NCBI RefSeq assembly: GCF_900774055.1
Contig: NZ_CAAGSW010000001.1
Location: forward strand, 39,797 to 79,796
Length of the DNA stretch: 40,000 bases
Reading direction: 5' to 3'
Origin: Methanococcoides sp. AM1
GTDB taxonomy: Archaea > Halobacteriota > Methanosarcinia > Methanosarcinales > Methanosarcinaceae
Each line of letters opens with the position of its first letter. Position 1 is the stretch's first letter. Under the pieces are notes generated by a model that saw only the letters and a list, made by a program, of their open reading frames with translations, was not told the origin of the DNA and ran no database searches. A program made the translations under genes and the position numbers. Shown piece after piece: positions 6,389-33,947 of the stretch.

Positions 6389-6802
6389 TCAGGCATATTC
6401 TGCCTGCATCTTATAAGATAGTAATTTTACAAGCAACATGCTTGCGATCATACAGATGGCAAGTGCTGACACCAGTCGATCCCACCCCAATACACTGAGG
6501 CCGTCCTTGAGGACAAAATCAACGCCTCCAAAAAATGAAAAGATGGAGATGGTAGCTGCAAGTGACACGACACATCCACCGATAAGTGCACCTATCTGGT
6601 CGGCACCCCTCTTCTCAAAGAATACTGAACCTACTATGAACACCACAGCAAATATCAGCAATATTACAGAAGAAGGCATTGGACTGATGCCACTGGAAAG
6701 AATGTTCATAACTCCAAGAGCCATACCGATCATAAAAATGGACATGGTACCTGAAACAGCAAGCGCCTGTAAAAAAGGATTATCTGAAATTTCCGCATTC
6801 AT
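6389..6802 (-). CDS. Small integral membrane protein, function unknown
   Basis: 137-aa ORF with about four hydrophobic helices. I recognise no motif. Confidence 0.5.
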   Translation of the reverse strand: MNAEISDNPFLQALAVSGTMSIFMIGMALGVMNILSSGISPMPSSVILLIFAVVFIVGSVFFEKRGADQIGALIGGCVVSLAATISIFSFFGGVDFVLKDGLSVLGWDRLVSALAICMIASMLLVKLLSYKMQAEYA

Positions 6803-6939
6803 CCTTCATATCCCTCGCGTTGTAATTTGTGTTGCTGATATATATAGTAATTGTCGAAGACACACAATAAATAGGGAATATATTCACAGCACCATGATCC
6901 ACAGTAAATAACAAATAAGATGATAGAATCTCACCTTAC

Positions 6940-7863
6940 ATGAAAATACTCCTTTCGGAATATGCCCTCAGCACCGGCATGGGTGGAACCTACCTTTTAG
7001 AAGGTAAAGCAATGCTCCACACCCTGACATCCAGTTTTTCGCGCCTTGGACACGAAGTAGTATACACATCGTCAGGACCAACGATAGAATATGGCAACCC
7101 AATTGATTCCAACGAGGACAATATCAATGAAATTCTGGAGAAACAGGCAAAGGATTGCGATGCAGCCCTTGTGATCGCACCTGAAGAGCTTCTACCCGAT
7201 ATCACAGCCATAATCGATGACAATACACTGAACCTCGGCTGCCCCTTTGAGTCAGTATCTATTTGCTCGGATAAGCTGGAATGTACCAGAAAACTGGAAA
7301 ACGCATCAATTGCGACTCCGGGAACTTATTCTGCTGACCAGGAAATACCAAAAGAGAAACGCTGGGTAGTAAAGCCAAGATACGGGTGTGCATCAGAGGA
7401 TACATTCGTAAGCCACTACCCGAAATTGAAAAAAGGTCAGATCGCAACAGAGTATGTCGAAGGAGAACATTTAAGTGTCAGCCTCATCTGTGGAAAGAAG
7501 ACACTCCCATTAACAGTGAATAAGCAAATGATAGATATCGATCCCGAAAAGGATTCGTCTTCTGTTGATTACTGCGGCTGCACGACGCCATACCCTACCG
7601 AAAGGATGCAGGAGCTTTATGAAACAGCTATCGAGGCAACCAGCATACTGGGATGCAATGGGTACACCGGAGTGGACATAATACTGAGAGACAGGCCATA
7701 TATAATAGACATTAATCCAAGACCTACGACATCTCTTGTAGGCATTACTAAAATAATGGACAGGGAGATAGCAGAGCTTCTGATAGCTAATGCTCTTGGG
7801 CAACCACTCCCACAGATAAATATTACAGGAAATTACTCGTTCACCAAAGAGGAATTGATATGA
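6940..7863 (+). CDS. mfnD: ATP-grasp ligase, MfnD-like (tyramine-L-glutamate ligase of methanofuran biosynthesis)
   Basis: 307-aa ATP-grasp-like ORF (WVVKPRYGCASE...; EYVEGEHLSVS; GVDIILRDRPYIIDINPRP). It overlaps the next gene by 4 nt. The assignment rests on the ATP-grasp / hydantoinase-like / amino-acid-kinase-fold trio known from methanofuran biosynthesis. Confidence 0.6.
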   Translation: MKILLSEYALSTGMGGTYLLEGKAMLHTLTSSFSRLGHEVVYTSSGPTIEYGNPIDSNEDNINEILEKQAKDCDAALVIAPEELLPDITAIIDDNTLNLGCPFESVSICSDKLECTRKLENASIATPGTYSADQEIPKEKRWVVKPRYGCASEDTFVSHYPKLKKGQIATEYVEGEHLSVSLICGKKTLPLTVNKQMIDIDPEKDSSSVDYCGCTTPYPTERMQELYETAIEATSILGCNGYTGVDIILRDRPYIIDINPRPTTSLVGITKIMDREIAELLIANALGQPLPQINITGNYSFTKEELI

Positions 7864-8849
7864 AATATATTGGAATAGATATTGGCGGAGCCAATACAAA
7901 GGTCGCCTCCTCTGATGGGGAAATCAAAGAACTGCTCTACATCCCGCTATGGAAAGATACAACACTTCCATCAGCACTTAAGGAACTATCAAAAAAGCTC
8001 AACCCCGATGGCCTGGCTGTTGTAATGACAGGAGAACTTGCAGACTGTTTTGTAGACAAGGATGAGGGAATCAGCTTTATTATGAACGCTGTGAACAACG
8101 CTTTCGATTGCAAGATAGAATACGTGAACAACAGTGGGCACTTCCAGGACAGTACCCAGAACACAAGGGACCTTGCTGCTGCCAATTGGGCTGCATCTGC
8201 CCGCATGATAGGAAAAGAGGTAGGAGATTGTATTTTTGTAGATGTGGGCAGCACCACCAGTGATATTATTCCCATTAAGAACGGCAAACATATGGCAGGA
8301 TATACCGATTTTTCCAGGCTGCTTCGCAGTGAGCTGGTATATGCAGGAACCCTGCGCACGAACCTTGCAGCCCTGCTTAAGAGCGTAGAACTAAAGGAAG
8401 GAACATGCCGCATCTCTTCCGAACTTTTTGCAACCACTGCTGATGCATACATGCTTCTTGGTGATATAGACAAGGAGCTGTTCACATGCGAAACCTCAGA
8501 TGGTGCCGGCCGGGACAGAATTGATTGCATGAGAAGGCTTGCACGAGTAGTATGTGCCGATCTTGCAGAAATATCTGAAGAGGACCTGCTTATGATAGCA
8601 AAAGATGTGAAGGAAACACAGATATCCCTGCTTTGTGATGCAATATCCACTGTTGCTGAGAAGAATGGTCTTGACACTATTGTCTCCGCAGGACTGGGAG
8701 AATTCATGATAGAAGAAGCTGCAATGCGTCTTGACCTTGATTGTTTCTCAACTTCCGACAAGTGGGGACCTGAGATATCAAAGGTGTTCCCTGCTTATGC
8801 TGCTGCAAAGCTGCTTGAAGAAGAGGAAAACGAAAAAAATACGAATTGA
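7860..8849 (+). CDS. mfnF: Hydantoinase-A-like / H4MPT-linked C1 pathway protein, MfnF-like
   Basis: 329-aa ORF with an ASKHA/hydantoinase-like N-terminus (MKYIGIDIGGANTKVA...FVDVGSTTSDIIP). It is translationally coupled to the ATP-grasp gene. Confidence 0.55.
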   Translation: MKYIGIDIGGANTKVASSDGEIKELLYIPLWKDTTLPSALKELSKKLNPDGLAVVMTGELADCFVDKDEGISFIMNAVNNAFDCKIEYVNNSGHFQDSTQNTRDLAAANWAASARMIGKEVGDCIFVDVGSTTSDIIPIKNGKHMAGYTDFSRLLRSELVYAGTLRTNLAALLKSVELKEGTCRISSELFATTADAYMLLGDIDKELFTCETSDGAGRDRIDCMRRLARVVCADLAEISEEDLLMIAKDVKETQISLLCDAISTVAEKNGLDTIVSAGLGEFMIEEAAMRLDLDCFSTSDKWGPEISKVFPAYAAAKLLEEEENEKNTN

Positions 8850-10124: not shown

Positions 10125-10196
10125 GGGCTCGTAGATCAGGGGGAGATCGTTACGTTCGCAACGTAAAGGCCGCGGGTTCAAATCCCGCCGAGTCCA
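10125..10196 (+). tRNA. tRNA-Ala (anticodon CGC)
   Basis: Hand-folded cloverleaf. Acceptor GGGCUCG / CGAGUCC includes the G3:U70 alanine identity pair. D stem is GAUC/GAUC. Anticodon stem is UUACG/CGUAA with loop UUCGCAA (anticodon CGC). Variable loop is AGGCC. T arm is GCGGG-UUCAAAU-CCCGC. Discriminator is A. CCA is not encoded. Confidence 0.9.
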
Positions 10197-10281
10197 GTAA
10201 GAAAGTTTAGATAGACCTAAGAAGATAGCGATTTTCTGCAAGAATTGAGTATATAAGTCTCTGTCTTTTTTGTACTTAACC
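10184..10281 (+). repeat. Direct repeat copy 1 (attL-like): last 13 nt of tRNA-Ala plus 85 nt downstream
   Basis: Aligns without gaps to 18819-18916 with roughly 9 mismatches in 98. Shared stretches include cccgccgagtccagtaagaaa, gattttctgcaagaattgagtatataa and tctctgtcttttttgtacttaacc. Confidence 0.75.
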
Positions 10282-10952
10282 CAGCTGGTTAGTTGTAATC
10301 TTGATCAAAAGTTAAGCAGGATTGTATCTGCTGGAAGGCCACAGCTCGCTTGTGCACAGGCATCTCACATAAAAGAAAACACATATGCATACGTTCACAA
10401 ATCACTCTACATCCTTCTAGGGGCTTCTGGAGATATGCCTACATGTCTTTTCTCAGTTATTCGGAAATATGCTGAGTTGAGATTGCGGTACCAGAAGGGT
10501 TTGACGAGATTGAGAAAATAGAGCAAAAATCCTGAACCATAATTTGTTTTTACTCAAAAAACAATATATAATGTGGGAGTGGGAGCTAAAGGATTCTTTG
10601 TCAATCGGCTGTGACTCCAATTAGACAAACTATCCAGAAAAACGTCAACTACCTGGCTTCTGTTCCCACATTATACTATTTTTGTAGAAGCTTGAGGTTC
10701 TGTTTCTTTTTGCACTTTGCTTTTTGAACAGTTAAGATTAAAAGTACCTCTGATTACAAAATATTATACTTGACAATAAAGTCCTGCAGTTATACAGGCA
10801 ACGCGGGTTACTGGAAAGTCCTTGGATAAAAAGAAGAATTCACGACTCTTGGCTTAATTGCCAGGAATGTGCGCGAATTGTCTTTGTTGGAACTGGGTCT
10901 GGTTATTTTACATTCGCCGAAGTAGTTAGAAGTAAGTAAAAAAGGTAAAAGT

Positions 10953-13619: not shown

Positions 13620-13995
13620 AAATAAGAATTAGAGTTTCTATTAATAAAGATTAGGTTTTTTCAAGATTGCTCCAGAATTTCAGTCATAATCTTCTTACAA
13701 TCACCCCTTTCCCCTGCTTCCACATCGTAATATGTTTTAACGTTGAATGCAATATATTGAATGAGAGTGGGAGTTGTAGAAAACAAGGCGATTTTTGGAA
13801 CTTGTGGGGAATCCACAGGGCAAAATCGAGAACGTGGCGAATTGAGACGAACAAACAGTTGCATTGGGTCTGCAATGCATCGGTTGAAAGTCTGCAGAAC
13901 CCTACGAATTTTAGTCGTGGGAGCAGTCACGAGATAATGACCCAATAAGTCGTATTTGTTTTCTAAGAACATGTATGTTATAGGAGTGTTGCGAC

Positions 13996-15165: not shown

Positions 15166-15540
15166 TCATATTAATCGATTCTTATGTTCAAATCCTGGGC
15201 ACCATATTGGAGATTTATGGGATTCAACTGTTTCATGTTTGATTAAACGATTCAACCTGTTACACGTATACTCATATCCCCTTTCGCTTGGGAAGTCGTT
15301 CCAGCATTTAAAATGTTCACATAAGGTGCAATCGTCGCGTTTTAATTCAGGGTCATGGTAGTCTTCCCATTCTCCACACCACGTATCGATATCAGTTTGA
15401 GGGAATCCCTCAAGGAAGAGAGTATGCTTCCGGCACTCTCCTTTAGCTGATTCCGAATTTACATCAATTAGTACCCAATTTTTGCAATATAAGCATTTTT
15501 TTATTGAATCCATACTACCACTTTTATACAAACTTCTCAC
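15166..15540 (-). CDS. Cys-rich small protein, unknown function
   Basis: 124-aa ORF with several CxxC/CxxxC pairs (CLYCKNW, CTLCEHFKCW). Its 3' ~145 nt are duplicated in inverted orientation at 17734-17881. The start may be the internal MDSIKK at 15513. Confidence 0.45.
   Translation of the reverse strand: MRSLYKSGSMDSIKKCLYCKNWVLIDVNSESAKGECRKHTLFLEGFPQTDIDTWCGEWEDYHDPELKRDDCTLCEHFKCWNDFPSERGYEYTCNRLNRLIKHETVESHKSPIWCPGFEHKNRLI
15217..15365. repeat. Inverted duplication, arm 1
   Basis: Its reverse complement matches 17734-17881 with only scattered mismatches (e.g. cgttttaattcagggtcatgg and ttcaactgtttcatgtttgattaaacgattcaac). Confidence 0.75.
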
Positions 15541-15570: not shown

Positions 15571-15780
15571 TCAGTGCAACACTGCATAAGACAAGAACTT
15601 CTTCTTCTGCATCAACATGCTTGCAGCACCACTCAATGCATCAACCTGATCATCCTGAGCTCCTTCAGAGAACTGTTCAAGCTCTGCCAGAAAAGCATTA
15701 ATCCAACTGTCCTTAACAAGCTTGAAATTTCTGAAGAGATTCTGGATATAAAAATGATTTTTTGCCATCAATGAATGCAT
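15571..15780 (-). pseudogene. Remnant of a phage/provirus terminase large subunit C-terminus
   Basis: The 69-aa ORF ends ...WINAFLAELEQFSEGAQDDQVDALSGAASMLMQ, matching the conserved extreme C-terminal motif (hDDxVDAL) of terminase large subunits (psiM2 ORF9-type C-terminal domain). The N-terminal ~400 aa are absent, since a PRTase gene starts on the other strand right there. Confidence 0.5.
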
Positions 15781-17638: not shown

Positions 17639-17733
17639 AAAGATACATTGGGGGTGAATGCATTTATATGTATTTGGTTATGTGCCGGGCTTCAATCCTG
17701 CATGCGTTTTCGACGTAGTGTGGTAGTATCAGT

Positions 17734-17881
17734 AGAATGCCATGACCCTGAATTAAAACGCGACGATTGCGCCTTATGTGAACATTTTAAATGCTGGAAC
17801 GACTTCCCACGCGAAAGGGGATATGAATATACGTGTAACAAGTTGAATCGTTTAATCAAACATGAAACAGTTGAACCCCAT
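17734..17881 (+). pseudogene. Inverted duplicate of the 3' part of the 15166-15540 gene (arm 2)
   Basis: Encodes HDPELKRDDCALCEHFKCWNDFPRERGYEYTCNKLNRLIKHETVEP, against HDPELKRDDCTLCEHFKCWNDFPSERGYEYTCNRLNRLIKHETVES in the full gene. It lacks the N-terminal half. Confidence 0.65.
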
Positions 17882-18607: not shown

Positions 18608-18818
18608 TGCCTTTATTCTCTAAAAAAGAAAAGTAAACACTCCACAACCCTCTTTTTAGGAGGCACAAATATAGAAGTCACCCAGCTTCACTTCGAAACT
18701 CTCCAACCTTTCCATCACATGAGCATTGAGAGCATCTACCTTGTAGAACCTCTTTGCCAATTCAACTTATTACTCACTAACGTTACCAAATTTGTCTATC
18801 AAGCAACCTAGTAAAGAA

Positions 18819-18916
18819 CCCGCCGAGTCCAGTAAGAAACTTTAGATAGACCTAGATAGATGTCGATTTTCTGCAAGAATTGAGTATATAATTCTCTGTC
18901 TTTTTTGTACTTAACC
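18819..18916 (+). repeat. Direct repeat copy 2 (attR-like): partial tRNA-Ala 3' end (13 nt) plus 85 nt
   Basis: See 10184-10281. The tRNA body upstream of the 13 nt is absent here. Confidence 0.75.
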
Positions 18917-19013
18917 TCAGTGGTAATTTGCGTGGTTCTGGTCAGAAAAAAAGCTGCCCTACATCAGCTGGGAGAATTGAGTTAGGCAGCACTTGTATTT
19001 TGTCGAGGCGTGA

Positions 19014-19074
19014 GGTTCGAATCATACACCCCGCATTTTAAGAAGGGGATATAGGTAACGATGAAAAACGGAAC
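19014..19074 (+). repeat. Pseudo-tRNA-3'-end / TIR-like unit A (paralog of the casposon target site)
   Basis: ggttcgaat-catac-accccgc-a-ttttaagaa-ggggatataggtaacgatgaaaaacggaac is colinear with the reconstructed empty target (19099-19129 joined to 33948-33977) and with the T-loop-to-trailer part of tRNA-Ala. Confidence 0.45.
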
Positions 19075-19117
19075 TTTTATAAATTTTTGATTTCCATAGG
19101 TTCGAATTTTACCCCTC

Positions 19118-19129
19118 GCATAGAAAGTT
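19118..19129 (+). repeat. Target site duplication, left copy (gcatagaaagtt)
   Basis: This 12-mer abuts the outer end of TIR-L, and an identical 12-mer abuts the outer end of TIR-R at 33936-33947. Confidence 0.65.
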
Positions 19130-19179
19130 GGGGTAATAGGTATCTTGAAAAATAGATACTCAGAAATTTAAGAAGTAAT
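19130..19179 (+). repeat. Casposon left terminal inverted repeat (TIR-L)
   Basis: ggggtaataggtatcttgaaaaatagatactcagaaatttaagaagtaat. The reverse complement of 33886-33935 differs at 3 of 50 positions. Confidence 0.8.
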
Positions 19180-19215
19180 CTCTAAAAATAGAATAGTAAA
19201 AAGTTTGAATGTAAC

Positions 19216-20040
19216 TCATTTGAGTTCATCTGATAAATCATCAATTGTGCTTTTTGCCTCATTAAATATTCTGATTGCATTTTCCTTTTTATTTGATTTC
19301 ATTTGCGTTAAATCATCAAGGTTATTGAAAATGATTCGATTTTGATTAGATGGATGAGTAATAGAAATCATTTTTACATTCTTATTTGATAAAGTCGGAT
19401 CATTTTTCCAGAAATCGATTTGATGAAATCGACCGTCTTTTGTAGGTGTATCAAGAAAAATGATTAACTTCAATTGATTACTAAATCTAAAGTGCTTGAA
19501 AAAGCATCCTATTTCATTTTGTACATTTCTGAACACTTTTTTTGGTGGTTCAGCACTTTTTTTCACTGGATGAAGTATAGCACAGTTAAATGCTTGAGTT
19601 AATTGAATTCCAGAATCTAAACTATTATCTAAATTTTCAAACATACCATTCCATTTCGTCTTTGGGTCGTTTGTTTCCCAATATGATACAATTTTGCTCA
19701 AGTAATCAAATAAACCAATTTTACTCAAATACTCAAAAAGATTATCTCGCATTCCATTAGCATAAATAGATGAAAAACAAGCTTCATGCATTGACTTACC
19801 ATTTTTCAATGCTTTTACAAATAATTCATGACTTTTATCAGATGTTGTTTTCCCACAAATAATTACATGAGGTTTATCAGGATAATTTCCTACTGGAGAA
19901 TAATTTATAAAATATTCACCTACTTTTAGTGGAATTTTTATTTCTGTTGTTGAATTAGTTTTTATTTTCTCAAATTCATCATAGAATATTTGTTTATCAT
20001 TAAAACATGAAAGAGAACAAATGTCTGTTGTTTTTAGCAT
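19216..20040 (-). CDS. Hypothetical protein; weak uracil-DNA-glycosylase-superfamily-like motif order
   Basis: 274-aa ORF next to TIR-L. KPHVIICGKTTSDKS and a late MISITHPSNQNRI resemble UDG-fold motif A (hydrophobic strand-G-x-x-P/T-G/S) and motif B (HPS..N) in the right order and spacing. This is motif-level evidence only. Confidence 0.5.
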   Translation of the reverse strand: MLKTTDICSLSCFNDKQIFYDEFEKIKTNSTTEIKIPLKVGEYFINYSPVGNYPDKPHVIICGKTTSDKSHELFVKALKNGKSMHEACFSSIYANGMRDNLFEYLSKIGLFDYLSKIVSYWETNDPKTKWNGMFENLDNSLDSGIQLTQAFNCAILHPVKKSAEPPKKVFRNVQNEIGCFFKHFRFSNQLKLIIFLDTPTKDGRFHQIDFWKNDPTLSNKNVKMISITHPSNQNRIIFNNLDDLTQMKSNKKENAIRIFNEAKSTIDDLSDELK

Positions 20041-20151
20041 ATATGTGACTCCATCAAATAAAATTTAAAACGACATTCACTATAAACTTATTTATACAAA
20101 TAAATAGTGTATGTTCTAAAGTTTAACTACTCTTACTATTGAGGATTCCCA

Positions 20152-22992
20152 ATGCTCGATCTCAATGAATTCCAAACCAGAACACAGAAAATAGATGTTC
20201 TTCTCAAAGAACACGGATGGGATATTTCTGACAGATCAAAGGTTATAGTTGAAGTTGATACCAAGCAATCTGATTTTAGTAAGCAGATTTACAAGCAGGT
20301 TAATGAAACTCTGAAAAACGATATGGATAGCAAGTATGCCGATTACCTTTTGCTTGATAGTCTAGGTGATCCTATTGCTATTATTGAAGCAAAGAGGACC
20401 TCAAAAGATTCTATTGTAGGACAAAAACAGGCTGAGCAATATGCTGATGATATTAAAGCTCAAACTGGAAAAGATGTCTTCATTTTCCTTTCCAATGGTT
20501 ATGATATCTGGTTCTGGGATCGGGAACGCTACCCTATGAGACAGGTCAAAGGATTCCATTCTCAAAAAGACCTTGAAAGAATGGATTACCAGATACAAAG
20601 CGGGAAGATTGAATCTGATATCGAGGTAAATACGGATATTGTTGACCGTGCAAAAAGCATCGAGGTTACAAAGAGGGTTGTTGAACATATCCGTAAAGGA
20701 CATCGAAAAGCCCTGATTGTCATGGCAACGGGTACGGGCAAGACCCGTGTTGCAATGGCCATTATTGACCAGCTTATGTGTGAAGGTCGTATTCAGAAGG
20801 TCTTGTTTTTAGCTGATCGTAAGGAACTTAGAAAACAGGCTTATGATAAGGGATTTATGAAATTTTTCCAGGATGAGTCTAAGGAAAAAATCCTTTCAGG
20901 CAATTATGACCCTAACAAAAGACTTTATGTTTCCACCATCCAGACCTTCCAGGAAATCTATAACCAGAAAGACAAGAATGGAAGATACAAGATATCACCG
21001 GGAGAATTTGACCTTATCTTCTCAGACGAAGCTCATAGGTCTATTTACTCCAAGTGGAAAGGAATCTTCACCTATCTCGATGCCGTCCAGATAGGACTGA
21101 CAGCTACACCAGCGGACCTTGTTGAGAGGGATACATTCAGGTTCTTTGAATGTGATGATAATACTCCCACAGCCCTTTACTCCTATGATGAAGCAATAAA
21201 GGATGGTGTTCTTTGTGATTTCCGCAAGAATGTATCAGGAGCAAGAACACATTTCCAGATAAAAGGGATTAAACCTGATGATCTCAGCGAAGAGGAACGT
21301 GAGGAATTGATCGCGAAAGGTATTGACCCTGATACGATTGATTTTGAAGGTACTGAGCTTGAGAAAAAGGTTGCTGTGAAAGGGACATCTGAAGCAATTG
21401 TCAGAGAATTTATGGAGAATTGTATCACTGATGAGTCTGGAACATTGCCTGCCAAGACCATCTTCTTTGCAATATCAAAGAAACATGCTCTGAGATTATG
21501 GGAGGCTTTTGAAAGACTATACCCTGAATACAAGGGACAAATGGCAAAGAGGATCGTCTCTGATGATTCAAGGGCTTCAGAATTGATCAAAGATTTCCGG
21601 GAAAAATCATTGCCAAGGGTCGCAATCTCTGTTGACATGATGGATACAGGTATTGATGTTCCTGAGGTGTGTAATCTTGTGTTTGCAAAACCTGTGTTCT
21701 CAAAGATCAAATTCTGGCAAATGCTGGGTAGAGGTACAAGGTCTGATGCTGTATGCGAAAATCGGGAATGGTTGCCAAATGGTGAGAAGGAATATTTCAA
21801 AGTATTTGATTTTTGGAACAATTTCGAGTACTGGGAAATGAACCCAAAGGGTGTCAAGAACGAATCCCCTGAAGCTATTACAAACCGTATATTCCTGTTC
21901 AGACTCAAACAACTGGACGAACTGAAGACTCGTGGTAATGAGGAACTTGTAGAAAGGGTCAAGACGACCATTATTGAAGACATCAAATCCCTTCCACAGG
22001 ATTCTGTGAGTGTAAAGGAACACCTTCAAGATGTGGAAAAAGCACTTTCTCCAAAGCTCTGGGACAATGTCGGACTCAATCCGATTGAGTTCCTTCTGAA
22101 GAAGATAATGCCTTTGATGAAGTTTAAACCGGGCGTGAATCTCAATGAAGCAAACTTCACCTTAAAGTGTGAGAAGCTTGCCTATGCTATCCTTCAAAAT
22201 AATACCCAAGAAATTGAACGTCTGAAAGAACCCATTGCCCAAATGGTTGACCGCCTACCAAGGACTTTGGACAAGGTAAAGGAAAAAGAGGATCTGATTG
22301 ACAAAGTCCTGTCCCATTCATTCTGGAATGATATTGTTTTTGAGGATGCCAAGATGATGATCGATGAGATCTCACCTCTGATGCGCTATATGAACAAAGA
22401 GCCCAGAAAAACCATTGTAATTGACATGGGGGACACGATAGAAGAGAGGAAAGAGTGGGTAATCGGTGATGAAAAAGCTGAATATGAAACAGCATACATG
22501 GAGAAGGTGGAGAACAGGATCAAGAAACTTGCAGAAACACATCCTGTTATCATCAAGATCAAGAATGATGAGGTCTTGACAGAAAGCGACCTTCAACAGC
22601 TTGAAGATACACTTTTCAACTCGGAGCTTACCCTCAGCGAATCAAGGCTCAAGCAGATATTTCACAGGCAGAACTCAACCCTTGTGGATTTCATAAGACA
22701 TATCCTTGGACTTTATGAATTCCCATCACCTGATAATACGATCAAGGATGCATTCCAGACCTTTGTTATCGAGAATAACAAACACTATACAGCAGACCAA
22801 CTCAATTTCATCAGAACAATCCAGACGGTTTTCCTGCGAAAGAAACATGTCGAGTTCTCAAACCTCTGGAACGCTCCATTCACAAACTTTGGCACAAATG
22901 CACCCATGCCAATGTTCAGCAAGGAAGAATTAAATGCTTTCATTGACATCTGCAATGGAATCGAGAGAGAAATATTTGCTTCAGAGGCATGA
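20152..22992 (+). CDS. hsdR: Type I restriction enzyme R subunit (HsdR)
   Basis: N-terminal PD-(D/E)xK nuclease (ADYLLLD...IAIIEAKRTS), SF2 helicase motifs (MATGTGKT, FSDEAHR, GLTATP, DTGIDVPEV, QMLGRGTR) and an EcoEI-R-like C-terminal domain. Confidence 0.92.
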   Translation: MLDLNEFQTRTQKIDVLLKEHGWDISDRSKVIVEVDTKQSDFSKQIYKQVNETLKNDMDSKYADYLLLDSLGDPIAIIEAKRTSKDSIVGQKQAEQYADDIKAQTGKDVFIFLSNGYDIWFWDRERYPMRQVKGFHSQKDLERMDYQIQSGKIESDIEVNTDIVDRAKSIEVTKRVVEHIRKGHRKALIVMATGTGKTRVAMAIIDQLMCEGRIQKVLFLADRKELRKQAYDKGFMKFFQDESKEKILSGNYDPNKRLYVSTIQTFQEIYNQKDKNGRYKISPGEFDLIFSDEAHRSIYSKWKGIFTYLDAVQIGLTATPADLVERDTFRFFECDDNTPTALYSYDEAIKDGVLCDFRKNVSGARTHFQIKGIKPDDLSEEEREELIAKGIDPDTIDFEGTELEKKVAVKGTSEAIVREFMENCITDESGTLPAKTIFFAISKKHALRLWEAFERLYPEYKGQMAKRIVSDDSRASELIKDFREKSLPRVAISVDMMDTGIDVPEVCNLVFAKPVFSKIKFWQMLGRGTRSDAVCENREWLPNGEKEYFKVFDFWNNFEYWEMNPKGVKNESPEAITNRIFLFRLKQLDELKTRGNEELVERVKTTIIEDIKSLPQDSVSVKEHLQDVEKALSPKLWDNVGLNPIEFLLKKIMPLMKFKPGVNLNEANFTLKCEKLAYAILQNNTQEIERLKEPIAQMVDRLPRTLDKVKEKEDLIDKVLSHSFWNDIVFEDAKMMIDEISPLMRYMNKEPRKTIVIDMGDTIEERKEWVIGDEKAEYETAYMEKVENRIKKLAETHPVIIKIKNDEVLTESDLQQLEDTLFNSELTLSESRLKQIFHRQNSTLVDFIRHILGLYEFPSPDNTIKDAFQTFVIENNKHYTADQLNFIRTIQTVFLRKKHVEFSNLWNAPFTNFGTNAPMPMFSKEELNAFIDICNGIEREIFASEA

Positions 22993-22995
22993 TTA

Positions 22996-24150
22996 ATGAA
23001 ACATGAATTACCAGACGGCTGGAAATATATCCAGCTTGGCGACTTAACCAAAATAAAAACTGGAAAACTAGATGTAAATGCACAAGATAAAGATGGTCAG
23101 TATCCTTTTTTTACATGTTCTCAAAAAACCTACAAGATAGCTTTCTACGACTATGATTGTGAATGTGTCCTAGTTGCAGGAAATGGCGATTTAAATGTGA
23201 AATATTATGATGGTAAATTCAATGCATATCAGAGAACTTACATAATAGAATCATTGGATAAAGAGATCCTTGATGTAAAATATTTATATTATTTTTTGCG
23301 TAAATATATAACAATATTGAGAAATAAAACTATTGGAGGAGTTATAAAATACATAAAGCTTAGTTACTTGACTGAAATAAAATTACCAATTCCTTCCATT
23401 AAAATCCAGAAAAAAATTGTCGCCATCCTCGAAAAAGCAGACGAAACAAGAAAACTCCGAACACAGGCTGATGAATTTTCACACCAGCTTCTTCAAAGCG
23501 TATTCATGGAGATGTTTGGAGATCCTGTTAAAAATAATAAAGGATGGAACATTGAGAAAGTTGAAGATGCTGTATTAAGTATCGAAGCTGGATGGAGCGC
23601 AAACGGGGAGCAACGACGTCACACATTGAATGAATACGGTGTTTTAAAAGTAAGTGCTGTTACTCAAGGAATATTTTTACCTGAAGAACACAAAGCAATT
23701 AAGGAAAATACTGAATTAAAAAAAGTAGTTATCCCTGAAAGAGGCGATGTATTATTTAGCCGAGCCAATACTCTTGAACTAGTCGGTGCAACGTGCATTA
23801 TCAAAAAAGATTATCCATGCTTATTATTACCTGACAAGTTATGGAAAATTAAAGTTGATACAAAGGTAGTAACACCTGTTTTTTTAAAATTCGTTTTGAG
23901 CCATCCTGCAATCAGGGCAGAAATTTCTAAAAAATCCACTGGTACAAGTGGTTCTATGTACAATATATCAATGAAGAAATTGAAATCAATTAACATAACC
24001 ATTCCACCGATTGAAATTCAAAATAAATTCACAAATATTGTTGATAGAATCGAACAAATTAAAGATAATCAAAAGCAATCATCCGAAGAAATTAGCACTC
24101 TTTTTAATGCACTTACGCAGAAAGCCTTCACCGGAGATTTGATACATTGA
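22996..24150 (+). CDS. hsdS: Type I R-M specificity subunit (HsdS), two target-recognition domains
   Basis: 384 aa. Two variable TRDs are separated by the conserved central helix (IKIQKKIVAILEKADETRKLRTQADEFSHQLLQSVFMEMFGDP) and followed by the C-terminal helix (IEIQNKFTNIVDRIEQIKDNQKQS...LTQKAFTGDL). Confidence 0.88.
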   Translation: MKHELPDGWKYIQLGDLTKIKTGKLDVNAQDKDGQYPFFTCSQKTYKIAFYDYDCECVLVAGNGDLNVKYYDGKFNAYQRTYIIESLDKEILDVKYLYYFLRKYITILRNKTIGGVIKYIKLSYLTEIKLPIPSIKIQKKIVAILEKADETRKLRTQADEFSHQLLQSVFMEMFGDPVKNNKGWNIEKVEDAVLSIEAGWSANGEQRRHTLNEYGVLKVSAVTQGIFLPEEHKAIKENTELKKVVIPERGDVLFSRANTLELVGATCIIKKDYPCLLLPDKLWKIKVDTKVVTPVFLKFVLSHPAIRAEISKKSTGTSGSMYNISMKKLKSINITIPPIEIQNKFTNIVDRIEQIKDNQKQSSEEISTLFNALTQKAFTGDLIH

Positions 24151-24425
24151 GCATACCAAGGTACAGGAAAAAATTCAAATTTGGAAGTTTAAAATCTTTA
24201 GTTGATCTGAATTGGGGGAAATACGGACCCTATGGTTATGTTGGTGCAAAAGCAAAAAATGGTATCTCTGTAGGTTACTCAATAGGTACTCGTGGACAAT
24301 ATGGATACGGTAGTTACAATAAAAAGGGATGGCAAGCTCGAATAAAATATAATATCGAATCTGGAAATATCTCGCCTCGAATAAAGAAATATACATCCAG
24401 AAATAAAAGACAAAAATGGAACTAA
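24147..24425 (+). CDS. Small basic Gly/Tyr/Lys-rich ORF between hsdS and hsdM (uncertain)
   Basis: 92 codons are open in AT-rich DNA. The TTG start overlaps the hsdS stop and the ORF ends 4 nt before hsdM. Composition is low-complexity (GKYGPYGYVGAKAKNG...GQYGYGSYNKKGW). No known motif. Confidence 0.3.
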   Translation: MSIPRYRKKFKFGSLKSLVDLNWGKYGPYGYVGAKAKNGISVGYSIGTRGQYGYGSYNKKGWQARIKYNIESGNISPRIKKYTSRNKRQKWN

Positions 24426-24429
24426 TATC

Positions 24430-25944
24430 ATGAGACTTTCACCTGAAATCAAAACAAAGATAGATGGCCTCTGGGATAGGTTCTGGAGTGGAGGTATGTC
24501 AAATCCCTTACAGTCCATTGAACAGATGTCATATCTCATATTCATGAAAAGGCTTGAGGACATGGATGTTCTAGAGCAGAGGCGTGCATATGCCATGGAT
24601 AAGGAGTACATATCCATCTTTGAAAGCAATGAGGATTGCAGATGGTCTGTTTGGAAGCATAAGTCCGCTGAGGATATGCTCAAGCACGTCAGAGACGTCG
24701 TATTTCCGTTCATAAAGACAATTCGTGATGGTGAGAAAACGCTGTTCTCACAGCACATGAAGGATGCTGTATTTGTTATTCCAAAGCCAACTCTTTTGCA
24801 GGAAGCAGTTGGTATTATCGATGAACTCAATATAGCTGCTCAGTCAACAGATGTGCAGGGAGATCTCTATGAATACCTTTTAAGTCAGCTATCCACAGCC
24901 GGCAAGAATGGACAATTCAGGACTCCAAGGCACATAATCAGGATGATCGTGGAGCTTGTTGACCCCGACATCAATGACAAGATATGCGACCCTGCGTGTG
25001 GTACAGGTGGTTTCCTTTTCACCGCTCACAAACATATACTCAGGAAATACACATCTCCTGATTTGATCGAGCAGGATCAAGAAGGGGAATATCACAACCT
25101 TATTGGAGATAATATCACCGAACAGGAGCACTGGGATAAACTACACCATGATACATTTTATGGCTTTGATTTCGAGTCCACAATGGTCAGGATAGGACTT
25201 ATGAACATGGTGCTCCATGGAATCAAATATCCTCACATCGAGCTTGTTGATACTCTCTCAAACCTATACAGTGAAGAAAATTGCTATACCGTGATTCTTG
25301 CCAATCCACCTTTCAAAGGCAGCATAGACAAGGATGATATCAATGACAAGCTGACACTTGACACAAAGAAGACCGAACTGCTCTTTGTGGAGAACATGAT
25401 CCACTTGTTGGAGATCGGTGGAAAATGTGGTGTAATTGTTCCTGATGGTGTACTCTTTGGTAATTCAAGGGCACACACGAACCTTCGTAAGATACTGCTT
25501 GAGAAATGCCAGCTTGAAGGTATCGTCTCCATGCCATCAGGGATCTTCGAACCCTATGCAGGAGTATCAACTGCTGTACTGATATTCACCAAGGGAGGAA
25601 ACACGGAAAAGGTCTGGTTCTATGACATGGAAGCGGATGGCTATTCTCTTGACAAAAAGAGAAATCCTATCGACATGAAAGGGGATATTCCTGATATAAT
25701 TGAAAGTTTCCGGAACAAACATGAAGAGAATCCTGAAGACAGGAAGGGTAAATGCTTCTATGTTCCATTTGATGAGATCAAGGAAAATAACTACGATCTT
25801 TCAATTTCCAAGTACAAGGAAATTGAGTATGAAGAGATTGAATATGAGATGCCAGAAGTTATTCTTCAGAAGATCGATGAGCTTGAGGATCAGATAAAGG
25901 CTAATGTTGCTGAGTTGAGGAAGATGTTAAAGCAGGATCTATAA
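24430..25944 (+). CDS. hsdM: Type I R-M N6-adenine DNA methyltransferase subunit (HsdM)
   Basis: HsdM N-terminal domain, AdoMet motif I (ICDPACGTGGFL), catalytic motif IV (ILANPPFKG) and a C-terminal coiled coil. Confidence 0.93.
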   Translation: MRLSPEIKTKIDGLWDRFWSGGMSNPLQSIEQMSYLIFMKRLEDMDVLEQRRAYAMDKEYISIFESNEDCRWSVWKHKSAEDMLKHVRDVVFPFIKTIRDGEKTLFSQHMKDAVFVIPKPTLLQEAVGIIDELNIAAQSTDVQGDLYEYLLSQLSTAGKNGQFRTPRHIIRMIVELVDPDINDKICDPACGTGGFLFTAHKHILRKYTSPDLIEQDQEGEYHNLIGDNITEQEHWDKLHHDTFYGFDFESTMVRIGLMNMVLHGIKYPHIELVDTLSNLYSEENCYTVILANPPFKGSIDKDDINDKLTLDTKKTELLFVENMIHLLEIGGKCGVIVPDGVLFGNSRAHTNLRKILLEKCQLEGIVSMPSGIFEPYAGVSTAVLIFTKGGNTEKVWFYDMEADGYSLDKKRNPIDMKGDIPDIIESFRNKHEENPEDRKGKCFYVPFDEIKENNYDLSISKYKEIEYEEIEYEMPEVILQKIDELEDQIKANVAELRKMLKQDL

Positions 25945-25986
25945 TTCTGCTTTTCGTTTCTAAAATGCTATTTATTAGATTTTTTC

Positions 25987-26049
25987 TTGTCTTTTAGCTT
26001 GTCTTTTATGTCGCTTTTCAGTTGTCGCATTGTCTCCTGGAATTGTCGC
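25987..26049. repeat. Iteron-like array of (T/A)TGTC(G/T)C heptamers downstream of cas1
   Basis: Six copies start at 25987, 25999, 26008, 26022, 26030 and 26043 (ttgtctt, ttgtctt, atgtcgc, ttgtcgc, ttgtctc, ttgtcgc). Four more (ctgtcgt, atgtcgc, ctgtcgc, ttgtcgc) lie at 26252-26287 inside the cas1 3' coding end. Confidence 0.5.
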
Positions 26050-26089
26050 CTAATTTTTATTGAAAAGAGACACCAAAACCCCCATGAAA

Positions 26090-27304
26090 TTAAGCATTTG
26101 CGACAAGTTTTTCCCATTGATTCAAGCGCTCTCTTACATGAGCATTAAGAGTAAAAGGCTTATTAGCCTCAGCATTTTTCTTCATATAATGCAATGTTCC
26201 CTTTGAAAATCCTAGCTTTTTCCAATCCGAATATGATATGCTAAGTATTTTCTGTCGTATGTCGCTTGAATCCTGTCGCTTTGTCGCATACAGCGGTTCT
26301 AAAAAATCAATCTCTTTGCGTTTACCAGTCAAATAATAGGCTAATTCCCTAGCTTTCAGGAGAATTACATAATTCCACATTGGCATTTTATCTTGGTATC
26401 TAACTCTTTTGTTAAACCACAAATTGACTTCTTCAGCCAGCTTCTTAGCCCCACTGGGCCTGAGCCTTAACGAATAATTCTCTGTCCTGATGAAGTCTTT
26501 CTTGTCTATGACATTTGTCTCTATCAGGTTAAGAACAGCAAAATCAACAAGGAATCTGAAAGGTTCCTGAAGATCATAAGCCAAACTATTCTTGCTAGGA
26601 TTCATTTCATGCAAAAAGCCCACGTGAGGATCTAGCCCCACAGCGTTGATGGCCCGCAGGCACTCTGCCTCTAACAAAGCGTAGCCGTAGTTAAGCATGG
26701 CATTTACCATATCCCCAGCCCCTATGGCCCTCCCACTCTGGTTAATTCGTGATTCTAAATTGTATTTCTCAGGGATAGCTTTTGAAAATTCATTCCAGTA
26801 CTTGTAGGCAACACCACCCTCTACACCCAATATTCCCCCGATTGTGTTGATTTTCTTTAGTTTATCAACATCCTCAGAGAAATCAAAATCAACAGTAGGA
26901 TATCGTTGATTTAGGAAATCAAGGACAACTGTTGATTTATCAATTTTGGCATCAATAAAGCTCCTTGCCATCTTTATTCTATTTTCTTGATTCTCAAATG
27001 CATGGTATTGAGCGAACTTTGTCTTTATGTTGGTACTCTCAGGAGGAAGCATTGTTGTTAACAATTTTCCATCCCAGTTGAGAATTGATATCTGTACATT
27101 ATGTTTAATCAACCACCTGATAGCATCAAGAGTGAGGTTTCCATTTTTCCCATAGATTATGATACTATCAACATCCATCCTTTTTGGAGAAAACATATAT
27201 TCTTCTGGTTCTTCAGTGGTTGAAAATCTCCCATCCTTGATATGAAGTTTTGATCCGTTTACACGCATGTCGATACCATGACCGTTTAGAAGAAGGAATT
27301 TCAT
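26090..27304 (-). CDS. cas1: Cas1-family integrase (casposase) with a C-terminal HTH-like extension
   Basis: Cas1 signatures in order: N-terminal beta domain (LHIKDGRF...IIIYG.NGNLTLDAIRWLIKHNVQISILNWDG), NAMLNYGYALLEAE, DPHVGFLHE and LAYDLQEPFRFLVD. About 80 extra C-terminal residues (..ILSISYSDWKKLGFSKGTLHYMKK..) follow. The ATG at 27304 is preferred to the TTG at 27310. No cas2, effector genes or array are in the window. Confidence 0.9.
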   Translation of the reverse strand: MKFLLLNGHGIDMRVNGSKLHIKDGRFSTTEEPEEYMFSPKRMDVDSIIIYGKNGNLTLDAIRWLIKHNVQISILNWDGKLLTTMLPPESTNIKTKFAQYHAFENQENRIKMARSFIDAKIDKSTVVLDFLNQRYPTVDFDFSEDVDKLKKINTIGGILGVEGGVAYKYWNEFSKAIPEKYNLESRINQSGRAIGAGDMVNAMLNYGYALLEAECLRAINAVGLDPHVGFLHEMNPSKNSLAYDLQEPFRFLVDFAVLNLIETNVIDKKDFIRTENYSLRLRPSGAKKLAEEVNLWFNKRVRYQDKMPMWNYVILLKARELAYYLTGKRKEIDFLEPLYATKRQDSSDIRQKILSISYSDWKKLGFSKGTLHYMKKNAEANKPFTLNAHVRERLNQWEKLVANA

Positions 27305-27306
27305 TA

Positions 27307-28206
27307 TCAATCAACTCCTGGGAAATCTGGTTCTTGTGAAACAATGCCTAGGTTTTTCCTTGCCCGATGCTTAATTTTCTGGATTACCTCAGCGTTTTTG
27401 GTCTTGCCTTCTTTTTTCAACTTTAATTCATGATTAAAGAGTTCCGTTCTATGATTTTCAATCACATTTGAAGTAAATGGAGTTTCATATTCATCTTCTA
27501 CAGTAGAAAGGTCTTCTAATTCTATAGAATCTTTAATTAGTTGATCAACAACATCTTTATCATTAGACCAACCAAGTAAAGCAATAATGTATCCTCTTAA
27601 TGATTTTCTCCTGTTTGGAGACAAAGGGTATCTACCTAATAAATGCTTCAAAACACTCAAATATTCATCTTCATTTGCTGGTTTTATTCTCTTTTTAATA
27701 ACATGATTATACAGAATTATGAGAATTCTATAGACCAGTTCTTCATCTTTTTCATCTAGATTTTTCGCAATGATGTTTAATTGAATAGGGTCCAGAACAT
27801 AAACATGCTCATAACTAAAAATTTCTGCTACGACTGAATGTTTGTCATCAATAGTTCCTTTTTCAAGAATTTTAAAGATATCATCTAAGTGTTTTTTAAT
27901 ATCAGATGTTTGTTTTAAAATGAGATATGTGGCCCTAGCATCTGTTTCTTTAATTCCAAATTTAGCAAAGTTTTCAGGTTTTACAATTTTTAAGATTCCA
28001 AGATCAGCCATCTTGTCAATTTTTCGGTTGATGCTTTTCTCACTATATCCTCTTTCTTGTTTGTGTTTTTCCGTGAGATAATCTATGAGTTTTCTTCTCC
28101 TGATTGGGCCAGTTTTTTGGATGATTGATTTTACTTCTGAGTCAAAATCATACTTAATACTCTCATTATCATACCTATATAGAAAGGAATCTGATGACAA
28201 ACTCAT
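27307..28206 (-). CDS. Winged-helix DNA-binding protein, casposon-encoded
   Basis: wHTH-like N-terminus (IRRRKLIDYLTEKHKQERGYSEKSINRKIDKMADLGILKIV) followed by a helical repeat region. Its stop lies 2 nt before the cas1 ATG. The start is ambiguous (28206, 28248 or TTG 28269). Confidence 0.6.
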   Translation of the reverse strand: MSLSSDSFLYRYDNESIKYDFDSEVKSIIQKTGPIRRRKLIDYLTEKHKQERGYSEKSINRKIDKMADLGILKIVKPENFAKFGIKETDARATYLILKQTSDIKKHLDDIFKILEKGTIDDKHSVVAEIFSYEHVYVLDPIQLNIIAKNLDEKDEELVYRILIILYNHVIKKRIKPANEDEYLSVLKHLLGRYPLSPNRRKSLRGYIIALLGWSNDKDVVDQLIKDSIELEDLSTVEDEYETPFTSNVIENHRTELFNHELKLKKEGKTKNAEVIQKIKHRARKNLGIVSQEPDFPGVD

Positions 28207-28237
28207 ACTCAAATTTATACTCAAATTGGTATATAAT
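28205..28237 (+). promoter_or_regulatory. Putative operator plus TATA box of the RHH-orf213-HNH-polB operon
   Basis: A perfect 11-nt tandem direct repeat atactcaaatt (28205-28215 and 28217-28227) is followed by tatataat (28230-28237), about 32-39 nt upstream of the RHH ATG at 28269. Confidence 0.4.
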
Positions 28238-28268
28238 CTTTCCGACATTTGTTGCTTTTGTGAGAACA

Positions 28269-28406
28269 ATGAATTCTACCAGAATTATTGCAACACTATC
28301 TCCTTATCTCAAGGAGAAACTGGAAAAGCTGTCAGACAAACTAGGATGCTCTCAGGCTGAAGTGGTCAGAGTAGCATTACTGAAATTAGCCGAGGAAGAG
28401 CTATGA
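28269..28406 (+). CDS. Ribbon-helix-helix (CopG/Arc-like) DNA-binding protein
   Basis: The internal ATG at 28269 gives MNSTRIIATLSPYLKEKLEKLSDKLGCSQAEVVRVALLKLAEEEL, a beta-strand/helix/helix pattern typical of RHH proteins. ATGA overlap with the next gene. Confidence 0.6.
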   Translation: MNSTRIIATLSPYLKEKLEKLSDKLGCSQAEVVRVALLKLAEEEL

Positions 28407-29044
28407 CCAGAAGACGGTTCTCTGAGAAGTTCAGGACCTATGGAGAATGGCTCAAAGCAGAATCCCGGGATTCAAGATATGCAAAACGAATAATTCGTTT
28501 TCATGAACGTTTTCCAAACCTCATCCTTAAAGAGTTGAGGGATGTCAGGCTCAAAGACCAAGATCTAAGCACTCGCTCCTGGGACAGTCTATCATCTCAG
28601 GAAAAGAGGGACAGACAACTTTCTCTTCAAATATTAAGAGAAATAAGAACTGGTAGCCACCTTAGCCGTGTAACGGAAAAGCTTGGAGTCAAAAAGGATT
28701 TTGCTGTAAAACATCTCGGGAAATACCTCTACAAATCAGGAGGAAAGTGGAAGGTTACAGCCTCAGACAGAATTGAGGTTGAGATGCTTTTCTATGAGAG
28801 GGGAGAGGGTCAGAGAACGATCATTACAGCTAGCTCGAAGGATCGGTCCTTGATTGGTCAGTACTTTGCTCTTGTACAAAAGGCACTGAGATACAATGAC
28901 CCTACAGTTCTTGACAAGTTCAAGGATAGAACAATTGTGGATGCTGAAGGCAATGTACACCATTTTGAGACGGATCTTGATAGGTTGTATGAAATAATGG
29001 AAGCTCAGGAAGAGCCTGAGTTTTTAGAGATATATCAAAACTGA
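28403..29044 (+). CDS. Hypothetical casposon protein (possible HTH)
   Basis: 213-aa ORF translationally coupled to the RHH gene upstream and placed 3 nt before the HNH gene. No catalytic motif is recognised. Confidence 0.55.
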   Translation: MTRRRFSEKFRTYGEWLKAESRDSRYAKRIIRFHERFPNLILKELRDVRLKDQDLSTRSWDSLSSQEKRDRQLSLQILREIRTGSHLSRVTEKLGVKKDFAVKHLGKYLYKSGGKWKVTASDRIEVEMLFYERGEGQRTIITASSKDRSLIGQYFALVQKALRYNDPTVLDKFKDRTIVDAEGNVHHFETDLDRLYEIMEAQEEPEFLEIYQN

Positions 29045-29047
29045 GGA

Positions 29048-29389
29048 GTGGATACTTTGAAAAAAGAAGACTATGCGAACTATATTAGAAGGAACAAGAA
29101 AGGAAAGAAGCCACCTATTGCTTGTGCTATATGTGGAGAGGATGATAAAAGCGTTATTGAACGACATCATGTTGATGGGAGGAATAATTCAGAATGGATT
29201 AAACCTCTTTGTAAAAACTGTCATACAAAGATAACAGCAGAGCAGAACAAACTCAGCCCTAAAGCAAGATCCAAAGATGCAACTCTGCAAAATCTGAAAG
29301 CCTTTAACATAATCTCACTTGGGGCTTTGCTCAGGTTAATTGGTGAACGATTGATCAATATTGGTATGGGGATGACTGTACATGTCTAA
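29048..29389 (+). CDS. HNH endonuclease
   Basis: CAICGEDD...ERHHVDGRNNSEW..PLCKNCHTKIT gives a CxxC...HH...N...CxxCH HNH zinc-finger core. GTG start. It overlaps polB by 8 nt. Confidence 0.8.
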   Translation: MDTLKKEDYANYIRRNKKGKKPPIACAICGEDDKSVIERHHVDGRNNSEWIKPLCKNCHTKITAEQNKLSPKARSKDATLQNLKAFNIISLGALLRLIGERLINIGMGMTVHV

Positions 29390-32054: not shown

Positions 32055-32058
32055 GAGC

Positions 32059-32907: not shown

Positions 32908-32955
32908 GAATTAAAATTCCTTTCCTAGAATTATTTTTGAACTATTAACTGGACA

Positions 32956-33801: not shown

Positions 33802-33885
33802 GACTTTAGAAGTATTTTAATTGTATTAATATGTTTTGATTTGATATAAAATTATAAGACAATATTAAAATTAAATTTGGCCAAC

Positions 33886-33935
33886 ATTACTTTTTAAATT
33901 TCTGAGTATCTGTTTTCCAAGATACCTATTACCCC
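33886..33935 (-). repeat. Casposon right terminal inverted repeat (TIR-R)
   Basis: attactttttaaatttctgagtatctgttttccaagatacctattacccc. Its reverse complement matches TIR-L at 47/50 positions. Confidence 0.8.
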
Positions 33936-33947
33936 GCATAGAAAGTT
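33936..33947 (+). repeat. Target site duplication, right copy (gcatagaaagtt)
   Basis: Identical to 19118-19129. It is followed by ggggatatagggaaatcggg, which resembles the start of TIR-L. Confidence 0.65.

Follow-up and report, generated by a model that had tools for sequence, protein, structure and literature searches.

Decayed tRNA-Leu-like boxes and solo terminal repeats beside a family-2 casposon of Methanococcoides sp. AM1: the probable left edge of a casposon graveyard

The described systems closest to the locus analysed here are the MetMaz-C1-type family-2 casposons of Methanosarcina mazei (PMC4779613, PMC6977970). Like the element of Methanococcoides sp. [quoted passage not shown] In the M. 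mazei elements the first four bases of the TSD are the final four of a tRNA-Leu gene (PMC4779613, PMC6977970). They reside at tRNA-Leu and at the intergenic site IR1 (Krupovic 2016, Hickman 2020), a type of target common to AM1. In vitro, the M. mazei casposase requires CGCA, the adjacent 4 bp on its 5' side and also bp 12-17 of a 40-bp test target, which lie inside the upstream tRNA-Leu sequence (PMC6977970); the same need for upstream tRNA sequence is proposed here for the AM1 casposase, a relative of the tested enzymes and not identical to them. M. mazei intergenic sites with partial similarity to tRNA-Leu are known (PMC4779613, PMC10359463), and the 'tLEU2' site of M. mazei Go1 (Gehlert 2023, PMC10359463) is an intergenic partial tRNA-Leu target like the AM1 boxes; the evidence for tLEU2 is nested PCR on populations, whereas that for AM1 is comparative genomics of fixed insertions. 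The same study suggests that a casposon may bring its target site along (PMC10359463). Solo-TIRs of M. mazei (PMC4779613, PMC6977970) adjoin CGCA without casposon genes, as do the stubs Y and W of the present locus, and measure 19 or 31 bp against ∼50 and 28 nt in AM1, where three lineages meet at one locus. The AM1 element differs from the M. mazei casposons in its genus, its type I restriction-modification cargo and a decayed box without a tRNA gene.

Tandem arrays of casposons have been described in Methanosarcina sp. 2.H.T.1A.3 and 2.H.A.1B.4 (PMC4779613, PMC5137440), where elements share one TSD, with the newer next to the box and the older in decay, as in AM1. The published pattern is that a newer element enters between the leader and the earlier element (PMC4779613, PMC5137440). 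Unlike those arrays, the AM1 locus retains only 28 nt of the older element and has, 85 nt upstream, a further box followed by a separate 14-mer and TIR stub. The tRNA-Pro target of Aciduliprofundum boonei (PMC5137440, PMC6614799) is likewise in two parts, a duplicated segment and an essential 'leader' within the tRNA, but involves another tRNA, has a TSD of 15 bp and depends on less upstream sequence. What CRISPR leader-repeat integration has in common with AM1 is a homologous integrase, polarised insertion that depends on a leader, and a cut segment that becomes duplicated. In AM1, by contrast, 14 bp are duplicated, identical repeats and a regular array are absent, and the inserts are 15-kb transposons or stubs. 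The link to CRISPR through solo-TIRs, tandem leader-proximal insertion and the PAM-like CGCA has been drawn before (PMC4779613, PMC5137440, PMC6977970). Where the first-pass annotation invoked the casposon-to-CRISPR scenario, the analogy holds for tandem reuse, a point already published, and fails for the duplication of a repeat array, there being two units and a 14-bp duplication.

The window, that is, the whole stretch of 40,000 nucleotides analysed, falls within this published casposon biology of tRNA-Leu targeting, the CGCA rule, tandem arrays and solo-TIRs. Since that biology has already been described in Methanosarcina, the value of a Methanococcoides example is mainly confirmatory. On balance, positions 19014-19129 are probably the left edge of a casposon graveyard, in which tRNA-Leu-mimic boxes alternate with stubs of older elements and box B was carried in with the end of lineage Y. 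The features concerned are collected in Table 1.

Table 1. Features of the casposon locus in the AM1 window
Feature	Position	Strand	Evidence or remark
Resident family-2 casposon, Methanococcoides sp. AM1	19131-33934 (14,804 bp)		Cas1, PolB, TIRs, TSD
Left TIR, Z type, GGGTAATAGGTATC...	19131-19179	+	Inverted repeat I2; PWM rank 1
Right TIR of resident casposon	33886-33934	-	Inverted repeat I2; PWM rank 2
Casposase (Cas1 homologue)	26090-27310	-	PF01867, E = 1.6e-66
Family B DNA polymerase	29382-32054	+	PF03175 and PF00136, 890-aa ORF
Left 14-bp TSD copy, CGCATAGAAAGTTG	19117-19130	+	Exact match at 33935-33948
Right 14-bp TSD copy, CGCATAGAAAGTTG	33935-33948	+	Perfect copy
Leader A (box A), degenerate tRNA-Leu 3'-end mimic, GGTTCGAATCATACACCC	19014-19031	+	No upstream T-stem partner; exact motif
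14-nt CGCA block tA, CGCATTTTAAGAAG, apparent TSD-type segment of an old insertion	19032-19045	+	
Leader B (box B), tRNA-Leu 3'-end mimic used by the resident casposon, GGTTCGAATTTTACCCCT	19099-19116	+	
Solo left TIR 'Y', older casposon of a different lineage	19046-19097	+	At least 42 nt homologous to real TIRs
Solo left TIR 'W', GGGATATAGGGAAATCGGGAAAGGCAAC	33949-33976	+	Apparent stub of an older casposon displaced rightward by the resident one

Resident casposon and its target site

The element at 19131-33934 is a family-2 casposon of the Methanosarcinales type, with Cas1, PolB, TIRs and TSD all present. Its TIRs, of ∼49-50 nt, are 94% complementary according to the repeat finder (I2), and its casposase, 100% identical to the NCBI Cas1 protein of Methanococcoides sp. 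AM1, has 787 homologues at E <= 1e-30, among which methanogens predominate. The cargo comprises a type I restriction-modification system (Pfam HsdR, HsdS and HsdM), a DUF4357 gene and a HEPN gene (HEPN_Swt1). Inside the casposon, the ORF list and Pfam returned no other cas gene, and Cas1 is linked to none. Beside polB, where casposons of this family carry an HNH nuclease gene, a 113-aa ORF (29048-29389) displays a CxxC...HH...CxxC pattern by eye, yet has no Pfam match at E <= 0.001.

The TSD of the resident element starts with 5'-CGCA and is AT-rich in its 3' part. Direct reading of both junctions bears out the empty site that the first-pass annotation had reconstructed by joining the flanks; the duplicated segment, given there as a 12-mer, is best read as the 14 bp CGCATAGAAAGTTG. 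In ∼100 related junctions the TIR begins GGG after a 14-mer that begins CGCA; the base just ahead of GGG is variable. Exact-protein look-ups for sister strains or empty sites returned the same sample only, and those with the Cas1 proteins of L074, L052 and similar casposons, aimed at their far ends, gave no exact match.

The 12-mer had been taken for the loop of a CCCC/GGGG hairpin. The CCCC-N12/14-GGGG hairpin is indeed the predicted minimum-energy fold of both units, at -2.8 and -2.5 kcal/mol, and published work considers inverted repeats close to Cas1 integration sites (PMC5137440), both of which would suit a cruciform or hairpin with a duplicated loop, recognised by shape rather than sequence. 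These energies are nevertheless no better than those of shuffled sequence (z = -0.08 and +0.61), so that the hairpin loses its standing as a target structure. The G that closes the stem is the last, variable base of the TSD joined to the GGG of the TIR, and is A, T or C in other genomes; given that variation across the ∼100 junctions, the four-base stem is an accident of a TSD that ends in G. In A. boonei, moreover, a segment with the T-loop palindrome and without the TSD was nonfunctional for the casposase (Beguin 2016, PMC5137440). Recognition of DNA structure here can be given hardly any credence.

Units A and B and their tRNA ancestry

Each of the two units consists of an 18-nt tRNA-like box, a 14-mer opening with CGCA and a sequence opening with GGGATATAGG. 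The window has exactly two occurrences of the pattern GGTTCGAAT-N9-CGCA (19014-19035 and 19099-19120), and CGCAT-N3-AAG-N2-GGGG-WW-ATAGG matches at 19032, 19117 and 33935 against an expectation of 0 from shuffles. Unit A (19014-19058) aligns gap-free with the rebuilt empty site B at 36/46 positions, an identity that 0/2000 shuffles equalled, and the repeat finder independently lists the similarity as families D3 and D4. Units A and B are thus real and non-random, and the paralogous unit reported 85 nt upstream holds good. A dispersed repeat or MITE unrelated to casposons would have many copies away from casposon ends; units of the box-TSD-TIR kind are widespread and, in the sets searched (for AM1 itself, the window only), always tied to casposon TIRs.

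The first-pass annotation went further and held that each insertion duplicates the whole unit, box and loop together, building a CRISPR-like array in place. The units do lie in the same orientation, at 78% identity over 46 nt, with TIR-like sequence after each, and in M. seepicolus (L052) the 14-mers flanking an equivalent module match at 12/14 positions. Against this, the enzyme family duplicates 14 bp without the box (PMC6977970; junctions in the present study). As casposition duplicates only the 14-bp TSD, it cannot copy the tRNA-like box upstream. Identity between tA and the TSD is only 9/14, and a second copy of tA was absent from the window beyond chance matches. Where a CRISPR-like array would have at least three regularly spaced identical repeats, there are just two units at 78% identity and a 14-bp duplication, and Tandem Repeats Finder reported no tandem array at the units. 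In addition, real tRNAs (Leu or Gly) lie 62-84 nt upstream of a pseudo box at loci L045, L074 and L127, and the two L045 14-mers are unrelated. Finally, A and B are each nearer to sites of other genomes than to one another. When the 19 variable positions of box and 14-mer are compared, B has one difference from a site of M. orientis and four from a site of M. seepicolus, while unit A ranks only 33rd of 129 in closeness to B; the nearest relatives of leader A are pseudo-leaders in L053, L080, L120 and L127. By these distances, A and B are neither each other's closest relatives nor local duplicates, and duplication of the whole unit is quite improbable.

Two simpler schemes were also set aside. 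A plain 85-bp tandem duplication is unsupported, as the similarity ends after 46 nt and Tandem Repeats Finder is empty. A TSD of ∼33 bp that includes the box was rejected as a general rule on the unrelated L045 14-mers and the 9/14 AM1 pair.

The boxes share 17-19/22 positions with tRNA-Leu 3' ends of related methanogens. They are colinear with them from the T-loop to the discriminator base, with an acceptor strand ending CCCTCGCA, as a derivative of a tRNA-Leu 3' end would be. Identity to the window's own tRNA-Ala is 12/22, and the colinearity with tRNA-Ala noted in the first-pass annotation is therefore merely formal. A match of AAGAAAGTT in the trailer was rejected as evidence of tRNA-Ala ancestry: the octamer AGAAAGTT is present seven times in the window, so the shared match is due to chance. 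ARAGORN found the tRNA-Ala at 10125-10196 as the only tRNA of the window and nothing at the units. In both units the T-arm is unpaired (gtgag/catac and ccata/tttac, 5 nt on either side of the T-loop-like motif).

A survey with the pattern GTTCRAAT-N9-CGCA-N10-GGGNNATA, one genome per species, returned at least 120 stretches, nearly all from methanogens. Downstream sequence scored as a TIR at 97 junctions, of which 47 lie at tRNA-Leu, 2 at tRNA-Gly(CCC) and 48 at pseudo boxes, some of which may be genuine tRNAs missed at the edges of 8-kb stretches. Among the tRNA-adjacent junctions, 47/49 thus fall at tRNA-Leu. The 48 pseudo boxes have a decayed T-stem and keep the CCCT ahead of CGCA. Together with these decayed boxes elsewhere, the 17-19/22 match identifies the AM1 units as decayed mimics of the tRNA-Leu 3' end, which, judging from the survey, are a common kind of casposon target. 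This extends the confirmatory picture in two respects. About half of the 97 sampled methanogen junctions lie at decayed tRNA-Leu mimics and not at genes. The CCCT-CGCA positions conserved in the mimics are, moreover, the biochemically important ones, at which mutations severely impair the integration activity of the M. mazei casposase (PMC6977970).

A tRNA-Gly(CCC), whose 3' end is also ...GCCGCA, serves as casposon target at L022, L117 and L122 (Methanosarcinales), and at L074 a pseudo box lies 62 nt after a tRNA-Gly. Two further ideas were discarded. That the TIR arose from the tRNA-Leu 5' half, TIR and box together having about the length of a tRNA, was rejected on alignments at shuffle level, and TIR remnants seen by eye between the real tRNAs and pseudo boxes of L045, L074 and L127 were unsupported by the position weight matrix (PWM).

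Solo terminal repeats and the succession of insertions

The PWM, built from 57 TIRs beside real tRNA-Leu genes in other genomes, was applied to 79,940 30-mers of the window. The two resident TIRs ranked first and second, the unit-A sequence Y (19046) third and the right-flank sequence W (33949) fourth. By blastn, Y matches L132 at 23/23 and M. orientis L005 at 38/42 positions, and also L044, L084 and L065. The inner part of W resembles the TIR type of L006 and L076 (Methanococcoides LMO-2 and M. vulcani; 6-7/5000 shuffles equal), and in Methanococcoides sp. FTZ1 the second tandem casposon has a TIR (L135 position 9607) that is almost the same as W. Both Y and W match TIRs, adjoin a CGCA-N10 14-mer and lack casposon genes, as solo-TIRs do. 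The first-pass annotation had likened the sequences to the right of the loops to the left TIR of the resident element. They are genuine TIR remnants, but belong to two other lineages: the likeness of unit A to the resident TIR is a weak local alignment (118/2000 shuffles equal), and that of the right flank is confined to the first ∼11 nt. Taken together, the TIR types Z, Y and W indicate that three casposon lineages left ends at the AM1 locus. The PWM found no partner right end for Y in the window, and tblastn gave no significant match to further casposon gene debris in the flanks.

Left of unit A, at ∼18700-18745 (- strand), 13 residues, LNAHVMERLESFE, match the C-terminus of the casposase, LNAHVRERLNQWE (3/2000 shuffles equal). 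In M. vulcani (L120), longer copies of the Cas1 C-terminus flank the orthologous membrane-protein gene on both sides. The AM1 match is probably debris of still older casposons.

At all six loci with both casposon ends (the window, M. orientis, Methanolobus vulcani, M. mangrovi, M. tindarius and one metagenome contig), another left-type TIR follows directly after the right TSD copy. In AM1 this is W, and the claim that successive casposons reused one site accordingly stands at box B, where the stub lies directly after the right TSD; its corollary, a duplicated target unit for each event, does not. The use of box B in turn by at least two casposons, a W-type element and then the resident one, is supported.

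The insertion mechanism is established for related enzymes and presumed for the AM1 casposase. The target would have two parts, a box of ∼18-30 bp that mimics tRNA-Leu from the T-loop to the acceptor 3' end (GGTTCGAAT-N5-CCCT) and the adjoining 14 bp that open with CGCA. [quoted passage not shown] Because the box and the left TSD copy outlast each insertion, the site is reusable; a newcomer would separate the box from the element before it, and older elements would be worn down to solo TIRs. We infer, rather than observe, the deletions and the sequence of events, which at box B would be as follows: the W-type element was resident first, the Z-type element entered the same 14 bp, and W was deleted to 28 nt. 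Unit A would be a separate site of like kind, made up of box A, a distinct 14-mer and a solo TIR of ∼50 nt from lineage Y. Most probably, an older end of Y type landed at box A and brought box B with it. Since Y is without a partner right end and tA without a second copy, its arrival in one piece is argued by analogy with M. orientis, L007 and L052.

A 190-aa ORF (33871-34443, - strand), with a signal-peptide-like start, two repeats and no Pfam match, runs from the right flank across the W stub and the TSD into the casposon TIR. Its final ∼35 residues are therefore encoded by transposon-derived DNA, and it is probably a gene cut short by the deletion that removed the W casposon.

The casposons of Methanococcoides burtonii were reported in 2014 as the sole ones without identifiable TIRs (PMC4046053). 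TIRs of the family type were observed there in tandem (L133 3746-3761 and 13880-13895; L134 3802-3817), with a shared 14-mer CTCATAACAAGTCG between them and IS elements interrupting the casposons; that these casposons do have TIRs and a shared 14-mer again goes beyond confirmation. In Methanolobus mangrovi (L008, 3661 and 18227) the TSD is perfect and the TIR subtypes differ (…AAAAAACGGAAC versus …AAAAAGTGTACGC), a mixture that recombination between tandem neighbours would be expected to produce.

Double ends, a candidate portable module and other features of the window

Among 130 distinct TIR termini, nine have a second TIR of the same orientation 74-113 nt inward, whereas only two have one elsewhere within 570 nt. 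The share of double ends could be inflated because the survey pattern demands box-CGCA-N10-GGGNNATA and so favours occupied sites. Every time, the stretch from one TIR to the other contains a tRNA-like box and a 14-mer, arranged as TIR, ∼53 nt, tRNA-like box, 14 nt, second TIR. In AM1, M. seepicolus and Methanolobus vulcani the two TIRs stand exactly 85 nt apart, and an alignment of the module from four loci, these three included, is almost gap-free with 78% column identity. GGTTCRAAT is enriched 40-80 nt inside the termini (Poisson 8e-5), and one outer module occurs twice, on separate contigs, in one Methanomicrobiales MAG. A metagenome scan for TIR-gap-GGTTCGAAT, in which chance matches predominated, added two double ends (L136 and L146) and one unoccupied box (L139). 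In M. orientis the same box B-TSD-TIR junction has different flanking genes; the junction lies there 65 nt inside one end of a 16.9-kb X...X' element with matching TIRs, bounded by its own perfect TSD, CGCAGAATACTTCG. Its position inside a TSD-flanked element makes box B a passenger of a mobile element in that genome. The arrangement 'TIR, ∼23-nt AT-rich spacer, tRNA-Leu-like box, 14-mer' appears from these alignments to be a conserved end-module of other casposons too, consistent with the carriage of box B on the Y end.

The double ends could also be read as att leftovers, two tRNA-Leu 3' fragments left beforehand by integrase-type elements or proviruses and targeted independently, after which the casposon at box A shrank. 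Such cohabitation of tRNA-Leu by casposons and tyrosine-recombinase elements is on record (PMC4779613), provirus debris lies upstream within the AM1 window, and the pseudo boxes of L045, L074 and L127 stand 62-84 nt past real tRNAs. In L003 (IMG/VR), a tailed provirus with terminase and portal ends right at a pseudo box one base off the tRNA-Leu(TAG) 3' end, followed by a TSD and a casposon TIR. Independent deletions, however, would not give the equal distance of 53-54 nt found in AM1, L052, L007 and L136, and the homologous spacers would go unexplained. The FTZ1 pseudo box comes straight after a gene terminator without an adjoining element arm, and in M. orientis and L007 the inner box sits inside a TSD-flanked casposon. 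Pre-existing att leftovers are thus an unlikely source of the AM1 pair, and the end-module is the preferred reading.

Three origins of this module can be envisaged: nested insertion at a target-like box that belongs natively to certain casposon ends, for which L139 would be an unoccupied example; a non-autonomous mini-casposon, in which the box end ...TTACCCC would mimic the right TIR terminus, as the 12/14 match of the L052 14-mers might indicate; or capture of an upstream solo TIR. More tentatively, the ∼71-nt block of TIR, AT-rich spacer and box ...TTACCCC may be a mobile unit, whether a mini-casposon or an acquired end-module, a possibility to which we give less than even odds. The box end ...TTTTACCCC-3' resembles the terminus of the right TIR (...TTACCC) and could act as a transposon end, and a landing anywhere would rebuild the full box-plus-CGCA target. 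If so, a casposon would travel with a landing site of its own and start nested or tandem arrays elsewhere in genomes, the constant 85-nt spacing of the double ends would be explained, and leader-like sequence would have a concrete route to join Cas1 substrates. A recurrent double end of fixed spacing, if it is a portable target or mini-casposon, bears on the tie between Cas1 integrases and leaders, and the recurring architecture offers a modest lead for further work.

In L003, the tailed provirus (6700-8166 and 595-2598) meets the tRNA-Leu(TAG)-like 3' fragment and then the casposon end at the junction 13894-13935; with a casposon end beyond the fragment, part of this 'viral' contig is casposon.

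Several other features of the AM1 window were recorded. The last 13 nt of the tRNA-Ala(CGC) and more than 100 nt of its trailer (10184-10295) are repeated at 18819-18930, 8.6 kb downstream, with 88% identity, the similarity fading by ∼10340 and ∼18975. The repeat suggests that two related elements integrated one after the other at tRNA-Ala, in tandem, and that the older is reduced to its first ∼170 nt; the 8.6 kb between the copies hold ordinary-looking genes mixed with phage debris. A 157-nt inverted repeat (15217-15373 and 17725-17881, 93%, I1) is a duplicate of part of a cysteine-rich ORF (15166-15540). In M. vulcani L120 the genes nearby have another arrangement, which suggests an inversion in AM1. 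A short ORF at 15571-15780 (- strand), ending in ...EQFSEGAQDDQVDALSGAASMLMQKKK, resembles by eye the C-terminus of a phage terminase large subunit, and a similar terminase-like remnant is present in M. vulcani L120.
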